In this document: positions 1-6,223 of the stretch, one piece after another
How the letters are laid out: each line of letters starts with the position of its first letter
Position numbering within the stretch: position 1 is the stretch's first letter
IMG/VR virus record: IMGVR_UViG_2579778884_000002
Source: a virus
Taxonomy: Duplodnaviria > Heunggongvirae > Uroviricota > Caudoviricetes
Direction: 5' to 3' (one strand)
DNA length: 21,910 nt
The notes under the pieces: model-generated
The model's input: only the letters and a program-made list of their open reading frames with translations
What the model was told of the DNA's origin: nothing
Database searches by the model: none
Position numbers and translations under genes: made by a program

Positions 1-451
1 AGAGCGTCTTGCCGTCAGGCAGCAGCGAAGCAAAGTGTTACTGACGTCGCTGCATGAATGGATGGTGGAGAAGAATGGTACGCTGTCGAAAAAATCCAGA
101 CTGGGCGAAGCGTTCAGCTATGTACTGAATCAGTGGGATGCCCTCTGTTATTACAGTGATGACGGTCTGGCGGAGGCGGATAATAATGCTGCGGAAAGAG
201 CGCTTCGTGCAGTCTGTCTCGGAAAGAAAAACTTTATGTTCTTTGGCAGCGATCACGGCGGCGAGCGTGGAGCACTGTTGTACGGGCTGATCGGCACCTG
301 CCGTCTGAACGGTATCGATCCGGAAGCGTATCTGCGCCATATCCTGAGCGTACTGCCGGAATGGCCTTCCAACCGAGTTGACGAACTCCTGCCATGGAAC
401 GTAGTACTCACCAATAAATAAGCGTCAATACGGTGCTCCGTTGACGCTTAC
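1..451 (+). mobile_element. IS66-family insertion sequence, 3' portion (transposase C-terminus plus terminal inverted repeat); element continues upstream of the window
   Basis: Open frame from base 2 to 421 (ORF track 35..421) has the conserved IS66 transposase C-terminal region (LGKKNFMFFGSDHGGERGALLYGLIGTCRLNGIDPEAYLRHILSVLPEWP). Bases 421-451 read on the minus strand give GTAAGCGTCAACGGAGCACCGTATTGACGCT, beginning with the GTAAGCG typical of IS66-family terminal repeats. Confidence 0.8.
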
Positions 452-1005
452 CCTTTATCAAAGGTTTTGTCACCATTTGTAGTTCCCATCATCTGGGCAA
501 GCCATCCACCGGCAGAGTCACCCAGAACTCCGATTCTTTGAGGATCAATCCCATAATTGCTGGCATGCTCTCTCAGGTAACGTATTGCAGCTTTTCCATC
601 CTCAACTGGTGCTGGAAATGTATCAGGAATTGTTCTGTATTCTACAGCGGCCACAACAAAACCAGCTTCTGCCAGAGCCATTCTCATTTCAATAAATTTG
701 TCATGTTCAGAAGACATGAATCCGCCGCCGGGATAATAAATAATGGCTGGTTTTAAATCATTTGTTCGCGGGACAAGAACTGACATGTGAAGCTGTCTGA
801 CAGAACGAGTTCCTTTTATCTGGGAATAAACAACATCACCAATGAGATCGACCTGGTTTCTGGTCGGTGAAACACTAATGATATCTGCACCCGGGGTGTA
901 ACCAGGAAGATTAGTCTGGACAGGTGTTGCACAACTCCCGACCGACATGGCCATTGACATACCATACAATAGTGTTGCAGATGATAATATCTTGTTAATT
1001 TTCAT
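448..1005 (-). pseudogene. alpha/beta-hydrolase (esterase/lipase, HGGG-type) with N-terminal signal peptide, 3'-truncated by the IS66 insertion
   Basis: 185-aa ORF with oxyanion-hole motif YPGGGF and nucleophile elbow GDSAGG but no downstream Asp/His of the catalytic triad. The reading frame runs into the IS terminal repeat and its stop codon (448-450) lies inside the IS end. N-terminus MKINKILSSATLLYGMSMAMSVGSC looks like a signal or lipoprotein peptide. Confidence 0.6.
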
Positions 1006-1452
1006 GTTTTACATGCCTTGACTTATCGGATGAAATTCTCTTACTAAATTTAACGGCAGTTTAATAGCCGTACAACTCGTGGTAGCCAGGGAAATATCCC
1101 AGTCGTGGTTAAGGTTGTACTTGACGGCTATTATTTCAACAATGCTTAAAGTGAGAGCTTAAGGTTATGCGTATGTTTTACAGTCCGAGTAGATTCTGAC
1201 CAATAGCTTCTTTGTATAATTCTGTCAGAAATAAATCTTGGCTTGCATGAAGTTTGAGACCTTATCTTGTTTGATTATGAATAATCAATTCGCCATAATT
1301 GTATCACCGGAGCCTGAACAACTCCGGTGACTTCTGCGCTAAACGGGGACGTTTATGCGCACACACAATCCAAACTCTCTTCTCCCTTCACAGATGCAGA
1401 AATGCACCTGCGTTTTTTTGCATCTAGCGTCTGACCTCTGTGGAGGTGAAGC

Positions 1453-1908
1453 GTGAACCTACCACAAGATGGCATCAAACTGCATCGCGGTAACTTCATC
1501 GCTATCGGCCAGCAGATCCAGCCTTATCTGGAGAACGGAAAATGCTTTCGCATGGTGCTTAAACCGTGGCGTGAGAAACGCAGTCTTTCCCAGAATGCAC
1601 TCAGCCACATGTGGTACAGCGAAATCAGTGAATACCTCATCAGCAGGGGGAAATCGTTCGCTACCGCAGCATGGGTAAAAGATGCTCTCAAACACACATA
1701 CCTCGGTTATGAAACCAAGGACCTGGTTGATGTCGTAACCGGCGAAATCACTACTATCCAGTCGTTACGCCATACCTCCGATCTCGATACCGGAGAGATG
1801 TATGTCTTCCTGTGTAAGGTTGAAGCCTGGGCGGTGAATATTGGCTGCCACCTGACTATTCCGCAGAGCTGCGAGTTCCAGCTGCTGCGCGACAAGCAGG
1901 AGGCGTAA
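1453..1908 (+). CDS. ybcN: NinB/YbcN-family protein (DLP12 YbcN-like, DNA base-flipping/recombination-associated)
   Basis: 151-aa ORF, GTG start preceded by GGAGG at 1443-1447. Sequence matches my recollection of E. coli DLP12 YbcN almost residue for residue. Gene order ybcN-ninE-ybcO-rusA is conserved. Confidence 0.85.
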
Positions 1909-2078
1909 TGGCTACACCGCTTATTCGTGTCATGAACGGACACATCTACAGAGTACCAAATCGTCGTAAGCGTAAGCCTGAGCTGAAACCATCCGAAATA
2001 CCAACACTGCTCGGATATACCGCCAGCCTGGTTGATAAAAAATGGTTGCGACTGGCAGCAAGGAGGAATCATGGCTGA
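1908..2078 (+). CDS. ninE: NinE-family protein
   Basis: 56-aa ORF found by manual translation (below the ORF-track size cutoff). Start ATG overlaps the ybcN stop (TAATG). Basic, short, WLRLAARR C-terminal region like lambda/DLP12 NinE. Confidence 0.7.
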   Translation: MATPLIRVMNGHIYRVPNRRKRKPELKPSEIPTLLGYTASLVDKKWLRLAARRNHG

Positions 2079-2361
2079 CTTGAGAAAAGCAGCGCGTGGT
2101 CGGGAATGCCAGGTAAGAATCCCTGGCGTATGTAATGGCAATCCTGAAACGTCAGTACTGGCACATATCCGGCTGGCTGGATTGTGCGGTACCGGTATCA
2201 AACCGCCAGACCTGATTGCCACCATTGCATGTTCTGCCTGCCACGACGAAATCGACCGTCGCACGCATTTTGTTGACGCTGGATATGCAAAAGAATGTGC
2301 GCTGGAAGGTATGGCGAGAACACAGGTTATCTGGCTGAAAGAGGGGGTAATTAAGGCGTGA
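2071..2361 (+). CDS. ybcO: YbcO-family putative nuclease (DUF1364-type)
   Basis: 96-aa product from the ATG at 2071 ([34 protein letters not shown]...), matching recalled DLP12 YbcO. Cys-rich motif CQVRIPGVC...CSACHDE. The ORF-track start at 2032 is an upstream extension overlapping ninE. Confidence 0.85.
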
Positions 2362-2720
2362 ATACTTACTGCATCACACTACCCTGGCCGCCGAGCAATA
2401 ATCGCTATTACCGCCATAATCGCGGACGCACGCATATCAGCGCAGAGGGGCAGGCATACCGCGATAATGTCGCCCGAATCATTAAAAACGCAATGCTGGA
2501 TATCGGCCTGGCTATTCCTGTGAAAATCAGCATTGAGTGCCACATGCCGGATCGCCGTCGCCGTGACCTTGATAATCTGCAAAAGGCCGCTTTTGACGCA
2601 CTCACCAAAGCAGGTTTCTGGCTGGATGATGCTCAGGTCGTTGATTACCGCGTTGTGAAGATGCCCGTTACCAAAGGTGGGAAGCTGGAGCTGACTATCA
2701 CTGAACTGGGAGATGAATGA
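2358..2720 (+). CDS. rusA: Holliday junction resolvase RusA (crossover junction endodeoxyribonuclease)
   Basis: 120-aa ORF, GTG start overlapping the ybcO stop (GTGA). Sequence matches recalled DLP12 RusA, including acidic catalytic residues (DLDN, DD). Confidence 0.9.
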
Positions 2721-2857
2721 TGTTTGAGTCTTATATGGCAGAACGTCTTCGCCGCCGCTGGGTGCGCCTGCGCTTATATCGTTTTCCTAGTTCTGTTTTG
2801 ACCGATTACCGGATACTGAAGAATTACGCCAAAACACTGAAAGGAGCTGCCGCATGA
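2717..2857 (+). CDS. ylcG: YlcG-family small protein
   Basis: 46-aa ORF found by manual translation ([46 protein letters not shown]). ATG overlaps the rusA stop (ATGA). Matches recalled DLP12 YlcG, which follows rusA. Confidence 0.65.
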
Positions 2858-3543
2858 ATACCCAATATTTACAGTATGTCCGCGAGCAACTCATTGTGGC
2901 TACCGCTGATTTGAGCGGAGCAACGAAAGGACAGCTTGAAGCCTGGCTGGAGCATGCACAATTTGATACTGGTACATACAAACGAAAGAAGCCGCGCATT
3001 CTGGATGAGGTAACTGGCAGGATGATTACGCTGGATAATCCGCCGATTTCCGGTAAGCAGTTGTACGCAAAAGGTTCATCCATTGCACTGGTCAGCCAGG
3101 TTGAGTTCTCAACCTCGTCATGGCGCCGCGCGGTTCTGTCTCTCGAAGAACATCAGAAAGCGTGGTTGCTGTGGAGTTACAGCGAAAGTGTTCGCTGGGA
3201 ACATCAGGTCACCATAACGCAGTGGGCATGGAGCGAGTTTAAGACTCTGTTGGGTACCAGGAAAATTGCAGGTAAAACACTGGAACGTTTGAAGAAGTTG
3301 ATCTGGCTGGCGGCACAGGATGTGAAGAACGAGCTGGCAGGGCGTAAGACCTATGAATACCAGGAGCTGGCATCACTGGTGGGAGTGACATCAAAAAACT
3401 GGTCTGAGACATTTACTGAACGCTGGGTTGCAATGAAGCACATTTTTCTACAGCTTGATAGCCAAGCTTTATTGCTTTTAACGAAAACACGTTCAAAACA
3501 AAAGACCATATTTTCACAGCAAGATATTGCAAAACTGGATTAA
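2854..3543 (+). CDS. Putative late-gene antiterminator (Q-position protein), family uncertain
   Basis: 229-aa ORF whose start overlaps the ylcG stop (ATGA). It sits between the nin module and the late promoter/lysis cassette, where lambdoid phages encode Q. It has no cysteine (so no lambda-Q-type zinc finger), is Trp-rich, and does not resemble the lambda or phage 21 Q sequences I recall. Confidence 0.5.
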   Translation: MNTQYLQYVREQLIVATADLSGATKGQLEAWLEHAQFDTGTYKRKKPRILDEVTGRMITLDNPPISGKQLYAKGSSIALVSQVEFSTSSWRRAVLSLEEHQKAWLLWSYSESVRWEHQVTITQWAWSEFKTLLGTRKIAGKTLERLKKLIWLAAQDVKNELAGRKTYEYQELASLVGVTSKNWSETFTERWVAMKHIFLQLDSQALLLLTKTRSKQKTIFSQQDIAKLD

Positions 3544-3573
3544 AAATCATATATTTTATGTAAATCTGATATT

Positions 3574-3602
3574 TTGCCAATGTTGTACGCACTGGCAGTA
3601 AT
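3574..3602 (+). promoter_or_regulatory. Candidate late promoter (pR'-like): TTGCCA -17 bp- AGTAAT
   Basis: Good -35 hexamer TTGCCA (3574-3579), 17-bp spacer, weak -10 AGTAAT (3597-3602). Located just downstream of the Q-position gene and upstream of terminator hairpins and the holin gene. Confidence 0.3.
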
Positions 3603-3610
3603 CCAAATTC

Positions 3611-3647
3611 AAGCCCGAGGTTTAAAGCCTTGGGCTTTTCTGTTTCT
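3611..3647 (+). terminator. Intrinsic terminator-like hairpin (candidate pause/termination element of the late leader)
   Basis: aaGCCCGAGG-tttaaag-CCTTGGGCtt stem (8-10 bp, one G-U pair) followed by TTTTCTGTTTCT. Confidence 0.45.
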
Positions 3648-3724
3648 GAACGGTGAGTAGCCTTCCAACCTACCCCAGCCAGGGTGTCTTCAGCTGTTGA
3701 GTTGATATTGCTTAACCCTCTGTT

Positions 3725-3750
3725 GCCAGCTACATGCTGGCTTTTTTATT
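3725..3750 (+). terminator. Intrinsic terminator (tR'-like)
   Basis: GCCAGC-tacat-GCTGGC perfect 6-bp stem followed by TTTTTTATT. Lies between the candidate late promoter and the holin gene. Confidence 0.5.
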
Positions 3751-3864
3751 CCAGGCTTGCGGGGAGCATCAACTCCGTGCTTTGTCGTTAAATTACCCCG
3801 TGAGCCTGATTTCTGACATTTAACGTCCCGGCCTTTTGTCGGCGGCGAAACATTGGCTATTCAT

Positions 3865-4170
3865 ATGCACGAAAAAGAGAGCCTTGCCGGAGCGTTCTGG
3901 CTCGTTTTGCTGATCATCGCAGGTTGGGGCGGTCTGGTCCGCTACCTGATAGATGTGAAGCAGAGTAAAGCAACGTGGAGTTGGATAAATGCTCTGGCTC
4001 AAATAGTGGTATCAGGATTCACCGGTGTTATTGGTGGCCTGATCAGCATCGAAAGTGGATTCAGTATTTACATGATTCTCGCGACAGCGGGGATTAGTGG
4101 TGCGATGGGTTCGGTTGCACTGACGTACTTCTGGGAACGACTGACAGGGGTGAAAAATGCAAAATCTTAA
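3865..4170 (+). CDS. Holin, class I (three predicted transmembrane segments), non-lambda-S type
   Basis: 101-aa product from the ATG at 3865 with three hydrophobic stretches (LAGAFWLVLLIIAGWGGLV, WINALAQIVVSGFTGVIGGLI, FSIYMILATAGISGAMGSVALTYF) and a charged C-terminus. Immediately upstream of and overlapping the endolysin gene. The ORF-track start at 3853 is a TTG four codons upstream. Confidence 0.8.
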   Translation: MHEKESLAGAFWLVLLIIAGWGGLVRYLIDVKQSKATWSWINALAQIVVSGFTGVIGGLISIESGFSIYMILATAGISGAMGSVALTYFWERLTGVKNAKS

Positions 4171-4633
4171 TCCTCAGCGTAAAGCCTTCCTCGATATGTT
4201 GGCGTGGTCAGAAGGAACGGATAACGGGCGACAACCGACACGTAACCACGGTTATGATGTTATTGTTGGCGGCGAACTGTTTACTGATTACTCCGATCAC
4301 CCTCGCAAACTTGTCACGCTACACCCCAAACTCAAATCAACAGCCGCCGGACGTTATCAGCTTCTTTCACGCTGGTGGGATGCTTACCGTAAACAGCTTG
4401 GTTTGAAAGACTTCTCCCCCAAAAGCCAGGACGCAGTGGCATTACAGCAGATTAAAGAGCGTGGTGCTTTACCGATGATTGATCGCGGTGATATCCGTCA
4501 GGCAATCGACCGTTGCAGCAATATCTGGGCTTCACTGCCGGGCGCTGGTTATGGTCAGTTCGAGCATAAGGCTGACAGCCTGATTGCAAAATTCAAAGAA
4601 GCTGGCGGAACGCTCAGAGAGAGTGAGGTATGA
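4157..4633 (+). CDS. R: Endolysin R (lytic transglycosylase, lambda R type)
   Basis: 158 aa. From residue 7 onward it matches the lambda R sequence as I recall it ([20 protein letters not shown]...), with the catalytic Glu in WSEGTD. The N-terminal 6 residues differ from lambda. Confidence 0.95.
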
Positions 4634-5091
4634 GCAGAATAACCGCGATTATCTCCGCTCTGGTTATCTGCGTCATCGTCTGCCTTTCATGGGCGGTTAA
4701 TCATTACCGCGATAACGCGATTACCTACAAAGCCCAGCGCGACAAAAATGCCAGAGAACTGACGCTGGCGAACGCGGCAATTACTGACATACAGATGCGT
4801 CAGCGTGATGTTGCTGCGCTCGATGCAAAATACACGAAGGAGTTAGCTGATGCGAAAGCTGAAAATGATGCTCTGCGTGATGATGTTGCCGCTGGTCGTC
4901 GTCGGTTGCACATCAAAGCAGTCTGTCAGTCAGTGCGTGAAGCCACCACCGCCTCCGGCGTGGATAATGCAGCCTCCCCCCGACTGGCAGACACCGCTGA
5001 ACGGGATTATTTCACCCTCAGAGAGAGGCTGATCACTATGCAAAAACAACTGGAAGGAACCCAGAAGTATATTAATGAGCAGTGCAGATAG
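4630..5091 (+). CDS. Rz: Inner-membrane spanin Rz (i-spanin)
   Basis: 153 aa with an N-terminal TMD ([20 protein letters not shown]) and a coiled-coil periplasmic domain. Matches recalled lambda Rz. Start overlaps the R stop. Confidence 0.95.
4850..5032 (+). CDS. Rz1: Outer-membrane lipoprotein spanin Rz1 (o-spanin), embedded in the +1 frame of Rz
   Basis: 60-aa ORF entirely inside Rz. Lipoprotein signal [20 protein letters not shown] and proline-rich [15 protein letters not shown]. Matches recalled lambda Rz1. Confidence 0.95.
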
Positions 5092-5122: not shown

Positions 5123-5416
5123 TTATTGTGAGCAATACACACGCGCTTCCAGCGGAGTATAAATGCCTAAAGTAATAAAACCGAGAAATCCATTTACGAA
5201 TGTTTGCTGGGTTTCTGTTTTAACAACATTTTCTGCGCCGCCACAAATTTTGGCTGCATCAACAGTTTTCTCCTGTCCAATTCCCGAAACGAAGAAATGA
5301 TGGGTGATGGTTTCCTTTGGTGTTACTGCTGTCGGTTTGTTTCCAACAGTAAACGTCTGTTGAGCACATCCTGTAATAAGCATTGCCAGAGCGGCAGAAA
5401 ACAACATTTTTTTCAT
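5123..5416 (-). CDS. bor: Bor outer-membrane lipoprotein (serum-resistance lysogenic-conversion factor)
   Basis: 97-aa product from the internal ATG at 5416 (MKKMLFSAALAMLITGCAQQTFTV...), matching recalled lambda Bor with lipobox LITGC. The longer ORF-track version (to 5464) adds 16 N-terminal residues. Confidence 0.95.
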   Translation of the reverse strand: MKKMLFSAALAMLITGCAQQTFTVGNKPTAVTPKETITHHFFVSGIGQEKTVDAAKICGGAENVVKTETQQTFVNGFLGFITLGIYTPLEARVYCSQ

Positions 5417-5896
5417 CTTATTATCCTGCATTGTTAAAAACGGCAGAATCCTATGTGACAACAATTAAACGATAGTTAAATGGATTGATGAAAATTAAAA
5501 CTACACAGGTGGGCTCAGACTATTGGAGGAAGTTGGGGACACTCAGAATCCTGTGGAATGAAATAAACCGGTCTATCCGTCCATTACCCTTTTAGCTGCG
5601 CTGTATCGTCGCCGTATTCCCGCATTAACCATGACCGTAGCCCGACGGGGAATTCCTTCTGCGTGAGTGTGCGGGAATAATTAAAAACGATGCACACCGG
5701 GTTTTTACCGCGTTAATGATTCGCGGGTTTATCCCGGTGCGATGGTGGAAGAAACAGGAAGCTGTATTACAGAAAGTGCTACTACTGTATCCCGATGCGA
5801 TGTATGTAATGTGAGTCAGATAATGGCACAGGATGTGGTGATGTGGCAGTCTGGAACACAGGATATATTGTCAGAATAAGACCCGTAGGAATAAAA

Positions 5897-6223
5897 ATGA
5901 AAAGACGCCTTTTACTACTTTTTCTGTTATCTGTCCTGGCAGTGGGATGCTCGCAGCAAAAAGCTGATGAGCCCCGGCAATTAGTGACGGTGTATCCACG
6001 ATATCCGGAATATGCTGCAGCAAATTATATCAAGGGGCTGGTTGAGGTTAAGTTCGATATTGGTGCTGATGGGACTGTGACACGGATCGTTTTTCTCCGC
6101 TCAGAGCCTCATAATTTGTTTCGTGATGAAGTGGTGAAGGCCATGGCGAAATGGCGATTTGAAAAGAATCGCCCCTGTCAGGGAGTGAAGAGACAATTTA
6201 TCTTTACGCCGTCACGTCCTTGA
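5897..6223 (+). CDS. Lipoprotein consisting of a TonB C-terminal domain (TonB_C-like accessory gene)
   Basis: 108-aa product from the ATG at 5897 (AGGA 6 nt upstream). Signal peptide with lipobox MKRRLLLLFLLSVLAVGC. The mature part aligns with the E. coli TonB C-terminal domain: YPRYPEYAAANYIKGLVEVKFDIGADGTV...EPHNLFRDEVVKAMAKWRFE versus TonB YPARAQALRIEGQVKVKFDVTPDGRV...KPANMFEREVKNAMRRWRYE. No proline-rich spacer and no N-terminal TonB membrane anchor. Confidence 0.75.
   Translation: MKRRLLLLFLLSVLAVGCSQQKADEPRQLVTVYPRYPEYAAANYIKGLVEVKFDIGADGTVTRIVFLRSEPHNLFRDEVVKAMAKWRFEKNRPCQGVKRQFIFTPSRP

Follow-up and report, generated by a model that had tools for sequence, protein, structure and literature searches.

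The window, that is, the whole stretch of DNA that was analysed (21,910 nucleotides; IMG/VR record IMGVR_UViG_2579778884_000002, Caudoviricetes), carries the genes ybcN (NinB-like), ninE, ybcO, rusA, ylcG, Q, holin, lysozyme, and Rz in this order, as established by Pfam searches and by the RefSeq annotation of a nearly identical chromosome (Table 1). This confirms the succession of nin genes, rusA, ylcG, an open reading frame (ORF), and holin which a preliminary description had read from the letters. The ORF in question, the Q gene, closes the nin region and immediately precedes the late promoter pR′ and the lysis genes. Window positions 1270–3543 are 95.5% identical to the whole nin-rus-Q record of phage 82 (X92588), in which the upstream genes are the same (orf151/ybcN, ninE, orf96/ybcO, rus, and orf45/ylcG) and the order rus-orf45-Q is as in the window.

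Table 1 Genes and putative transcription signals around the Q gene (window positions; plus-signed numbers in the comments are relative to the putative transcription start)
Feature	Position	Strand	Evidence or comment
rusA	2358–2720	+	Pfam RusA; translationally overlaps ylcG
ylcG	2717–2857	+	Directly upstream of Q
Q	2854–3543	+	ATG start, TAA stop, 229 aa; ATG overlaps the ylcG stop
pR′ −35 hexamer, TTGCAA	3527–3532	+	Promoter scan; inside Q codons I-A-K
−35/−10 spacer, AACTGGATTAAAAATCA	3533–3549	+	17 nt; putative location of the Q-binding element (QBE)
pR′ −10 hexamer, TATATT	3550–3555	+	Promoter scan
Putative transcription start, +1 (A)	3562	+	7 nt after the −10 hexamer
Putative sigma70-dependent pause element	3567–3578	+	Sequence fit to the description of Bird et al. 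2016
Predicted pause and Q loading site, +25 (U)/+26	3586–3587	+	T at 3586; published +25/+26 pause
First intrinsic terminator (predicted)	3611–3647	+	12-bp stem 3611–3637 (+50 to +76), then T-rich tail
Second intrinsic terminator (predicted)	3725–3751	+	GCCAGC...GCTGGC (3725–3741), then TTTTTT; terminator scan and RNA fold
Holin, LydA-type	3865–4170	+	Pfam Phage_holin_3_3; RefSeq holin
Lysozyme	4157–4633	+	RefSeq GH24
Rz	4630–5091	+	Pfam Phage_lysis; RefSeq RzpD
Rz1-like ORF	4850–5032		Embedded in Rz

Between positions 452 and 16300, the window is 99.95% identical to a prophage of Escherichia coli strain 4/1-1. Of 5426 complete genomes, 4219 match the 2-kb Q region at some level, and many E. 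coli chromosomes carry it with 100% identity. In the leftmost part of the window (1–1005), the 3′ part of an IS66-like ISEc23 transposase ORF (35–421, + strand) abuts a truncated alpha/beta-hydrolase gene (448–1005, − strand). In strain 4/1-1, this hydrolase gene has its full length of 1044 nt and adjoins an inverse-autotransporter cargo gene; in the genome from which the window derives, an IS element has therefore inserted into prophage cargo. Downstream of Rz lie a bor/iss-type lipoprotein gene (5123–5464, − strand), to which the 99.95% identical genome gives the annotation “increased serum survival lipoprotein Iss,” and a gene for a small TonB-family protein (5843–6223, + strand); genes of these two types are typical moron cargo between the lysis and terminase genes.

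The Q ORF matches the Pfam family PF06323 (Phage_antiter_Q) with an E-value of 2.6e-93 and a score of 312.2 bits against a cutoff of 25, and the alignment, which places residues 4–219 on positions 1–216 of the 220-position profile, is full-length. A clear match to a family other than antiterminators was also looked for, and no Pfam family besides PF06323 matched the 229-aa protein at E ≤ 1. NCBIfam holds no model for the protein, whereas PHROG 304 (“anti-termination protein Q-like”) is matched with an E-value of 2.6e-107, and RefSeq names the same gene in the strain 4/1-1 prophage “bacteriophage antitermination protein Q.” Direct alignment with the Q protein of phage 82 (CAA63332, REGQ_BP82) is gap-free, with 223 of the 229 residues identical (97.4%). 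Consistently, tblastn searches against phage records recovered the gene annotated “phage 82 Q antiterminator” in X92588 (97.4% identity), the Q of the isolated phage PhiR47_2 (99.6%), and that of phage 434 (87%). The phage 82 protein has the same length and likewise no cysteine, and differs from its counterpart in the window by six substitutions (S70L, E204Q, R211K, A218T, T219I, and N224D), five of which fall in the C-terminal tail, residues 204–224. Phage 82 is a laboratory phage, whereas the Q gene of the window sits in an E. coli chromosomal prophage. By these sequence comparisons, ORF 2854–3543 is a late antiterminator Q of the Q82 family (PF06323), namely a 97.4% identical allele of phage 82 Q, so that the preliminary description was right in suggesting a distinct Q family. 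The Q82 family is textbook material, with biochemistry since the late 1980s; a Q of this type is an already known protein, to which the locus adds only another near-identical allele. More distant members of the same family, with 26–29% identity over ~68–84% of the length, are the Q-like late activators of N15 (gene 40), PY54, phiKO2, and VP882, all of them linear-plasmid (telomere) phages in which the Q-like gene lies beside cro rather than after a nin region.

The composition of the protein had been described as cysteine-free and tryptophan-rich, and the counts bear out both statements: 0 Cys, 10 Trp (4.4%), and 4 His. The tryptophan excess (P about 0.003 against a background of 1.5%) is a property of the family. 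Among 64 non-redundant homologues, filtered below 80% identity, W90, W104, W126, and W183 are invariant, and W151 and W191 are nearly so. The absence of cysteine from 229 residues, by itself, is not statistically unusual (chance P about 0.06–0.13). We considered it as a signature of the Q82 family and rejected it, since most homologues have cysteines: only 72 of 246 full-length homologues lack them, and position 108, a serine in the protein of the window, is a cysteine in 55 of the 64 non-redundant sequences.

Lambda Q (PF03589; PDB 4MO1 and 7UBN) has a Cys4 zinc finger, whereas the Q of the window has none; the motif was confirmed in the fetched lambda Q sequence, which served as control and carries C118, C121, C144, and C147. 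Yin et al. 2022 (PMC9388147) distinguish three Q families, Q21 (PF06530), Q-lambda (PF03589), and Q82 (PF06323), which are equivalent in activity and in genome position without obviously resembling one another in sequence. The unlikeness to lambda Q is therefore to be expected, and because the protein belongs to the Q82 family, so is the missing zinc finger. When the protein was checked against the three families, Q82 was matched, whereas PF03589 was not at E ≤ 1 (the lambda Q control scores 193 bits), nor was PF06530; a close fold match to Q21 (PDB 6JNX and 6P19) was likewise not obtained. Profile comparison with hhalign gave no significant similarity between the Q82 family and lambda Q (E 0.14, probability 0.4%). 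The sole stretch aligned, itself insignificant at that E-value, pairs Q82 residues 177–198 with lambda Q residues 170–191 and falls in the part assigned to DNA recognition by Wen 2022.

The preliminary description had also raised the possibility that a different, non-antiterminator regulator, for example a classical activator or repressor, has replaced Q between ylcG and the lysis genes. Such a replacement would fit the lack of a zinc motif and of sequence similarity to lambda Q (hhalign E 0.14), but it is contradicted by 97.4% identity to a protein for which antitermination has been reconstituted in vitro and by the full-length PF06323 match; moreover, the pause element and terminators predicted downstream make sense for a Q-type mechanism only. 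On homology to phage 82 Q, replacement by another regulator is excluded, and we regard it as barely conceivable.

As the PDB was searched with both the protein and the 64-sequence family profile, no solved relative emerged, the only matches being chance ones to a tobamovirus replicase (E about 0.8). The structure of the Q82-type protein was predicted from the alignment of 64 sequences with 24–80% identity; a homologue search seeded with Morganella Q had returned only 14 matches, and the necessary diversity came only with a profile built from five distant members. The resulting model has a mean pLDDT of 80.7 and a pTM of 0.69. Residues 80–222 (pLDDT >90) are predicted to be all-helical and to end in a helix-turn-helix-like pair (169–176 and 180–221), whereas the N-terminal loops 24–39 and 64–76 are of low confidence. 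In a Foldseek search of the PDB, the first-ranked match of the model is lambda Q (7ubn_Q), with a weak E-value of 0.15 and a match probability of 0.99, and the second is AlpA of Pseudomonas aeruginosa (PDB 7XYB; 7xyb_G), with a similarly weak E-value of 0.27; against viral predicted structures, Foldseek returned one family member and otherwise only weak, uninformative matches. That two Q-type antiterminators should independently come top in both methods is unlikely to be a chance coincidence. The two best structural matches therefore point, with the weak E-values of 0.15 and 0.27, to a lambda-Q/AlpA-like helical scaffold devoid of a zinc finger. A resemblance in fold of the Q82 family has already been proposed by Wen 2022. 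One might go further, for the Q82 family as a whole rather than for this locus, and see in it a structural relative of lambda Q and AlpA that lacks the zinc finger and has common ancestry with families described as unrelated, yet acts through an open NusA shield rather than a closed RNA-exit nozzle. The shared-fold part of this reading draws on the two best PDB matches of the model. As to the nozzle, Q21, lambda Q, and AlpA form a closed one at the RNA exit channel, and Q82 has been predicted to do so as well (Wen 2022), whereas its loading onto complexes that carry long RNA speaks against a closed ring (Yin 2022, PMC9388147, where a shield is raised as the alternative). As a whole, we consider this extended reading tentative and somewhat doubtful.

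Promoter and terminators had been placed at 3574–3750 in the preliminary description. The predicted terminators and part of the pause element are indeed found there, but the promoter does not start at 3574: its −35 hexamer lies within the end of the Q gene and transcription would begin at A3562 (Table 1). This start and the QBE coordinates were fitted to published descriptions of the phage 82 promoter. A3562 was chosen because it is the only start that puts the single GCC (3576–3578) at +15 to +17 and a U at +25, as reported for 82 pR′, which pauses at +25/+26 (Bird et al. 2016, PMC5001585). The QBE has been mapped between the −35 and −10 elements, within the segment −31 to +30 of 82 pR′ (Wells 2016), and here it would occupy the spacer, its exact bases being putative.

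Comparison with phage 82 DNA extends to the Q stop codon, where record X92588 ends, and searching the phage collection for the intergenic region yielded no phage 82 record other than X92588. Within the shared part, phage 82 has the same −35 hexamer and the same first 11 spacer bases (3533–3543), and the Q82 family largely preserves them; of the other Q82-family phages compared, most keep the hexamer. The family also largely conserves AACTGGATTAAA and the segment TTGCAAAACTGGATTAAA...TATATT...TGATAT, which follows the Q82-family genes of phage 434, PPompW, and Klebsiella, Enterobacter, and Cronobacter phages and is not shared by Gifsy-1. The last five Q codons (I-A-K-L-D-stop; 3527–3543) double as −35 hexamer and spacer start, and their DNA is conserved in most Q82-family phages compared. 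Overlap with the promoter would explain why a conserved “IAKLD” C-terminus stands beside an otherwise variable tail.

Two further matches were noted on the opposite strand. Overlapping with the pR′ −35 hexamer, the sequence TTGCAATATCTTGC (3519–3532, − strand) conforms to the CII-box consensus TTGY-N6-TTGY; the phage 434 record has, at the corresponding place, an annotated CII site that is also marked as the −35 of the antisense promoter paQ. The consensus is not over-represented in the window (2 occurrences against 4.4 expected), and the match is suggestive by its position alone. A sigma70-like promoter match, TTGGCA-16-TAAAAT (3553–3580, − strand; 10/12), points back into Q; it mirrors the region of the pR′ start and pause, and may simply reflect the AT-rich −10-like elements there.

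The putative pause element consists of an extended TG at 3567–3568 (+6/+7), a −10-like TATTTT at 3570–3575 (+9 to +14), and a GCC discriminator at 3576–3578 (+15 to +17), and the TGATAT sequence is conserved across most of the Q82 family. In 82 pR′, the −10-like pause element is closer to the consensus than that of lambda and includes an extended −10 (Bird et al. 2016, PMC5001585). With A3562 as the putative start, the positions of TG, TATTTT, and T3586 agree independently with this description. The pause predicted here is of the 82 type (+25/26), whereas lambda Q acts at a pause at +16/17. Of the two strong terminators predicted, the first was found by the terminator scan, its hairpin is present in both the MFE and centroid RNA folds, and a hairpin followed by a T-run occurs at roughly the same place in 434, PPompW, Gifsy-1, and the Enterobacter and Cronobacter relatives. 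The scan returned 5 terminator-like sites, compared with an expectation of 0.8. Beyond the second terminator and ahead of the holin gene there is a third and weaker hairpin of this kind (3758–3779; 7 pairs, tail CTTTGTCGTT). Searches against Rfam identified no known RNA family anywhere in the window.

Alternatively, the Q82-type gene might be an inactive relic of a decaying prophage, disabled by its substitutions or by surrounding insertions. The ISEc23 insertion in a cargo gene at the left end of the window and the clustering of five of the six substitutions in the C-terminal tail could be read in this way. However, the Q ORF is intact, as are the promoter, pause element, and terminators, and the lysis, head, and tail genes that follow form a complete set. 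An isolated phage, PhiR47_2, carries the same allele (99.6%); many E. coli chromosomes preserve the 2-kb Q region without change, as noted above; and the six substitutions are either conservative or recur in other family members. Decay of the gene into a relic is accordingly a most improbable explanation, if a little less so than replacement by another regulator.

Almost certainly, then, the ORF encodes the late antiterminator Q of a phage 82-like lambdoid E. coli prophage and should work by the phage 82 mechanism; nothing in the data speaks against this account. For this locus, the analysis established the identity of the protein by sequence and its place in the Q82 family, located the cis elements, and predicted the fold. 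According to published work, phage 82 Q depends on the promoter QBE and loads onto the sigma70-dependent paused complex at +25, NusA stimulates it through alpha-CTD, and the Q-NusA shield covers about 10 extra nucleotides of nascent RNA; its antitermination has been reconstituted in vitro and is QBE- and pause-dependent and NusA-stimulated. Carried over to the window, RNA polymerase holoenzyme would start constitutively at pR′ (about 3562) and pause at +25/+26, because sigma70 region 2 would rebind the extended −10-like sequence TGaTATTTT (+6 to +14). [quoted passage not shown] The Q-modified complex, carrying Q and NusA, would then escape the pause and read through the two terminators into the holin, lysozyme, Rz, head, and tail genes. 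The DNA binding, flap contact, NusA dependence, and antitermination in this scheme derive from the phage 82 Q work and would hold here by analogy.

An experimental structure of the Q82 family and its exact mechanism of antitermination are known priorities of the field, which this locus does not advance. What the Q82-type identity provides is an explanation for the missing zinc motif and, for annotators, the location of the late promoter, pause site, and terminators. Its significance goes little beyond such correct annotation, in this case of the switch for late genes in a phage 82-like prophage found widely among E. coli.
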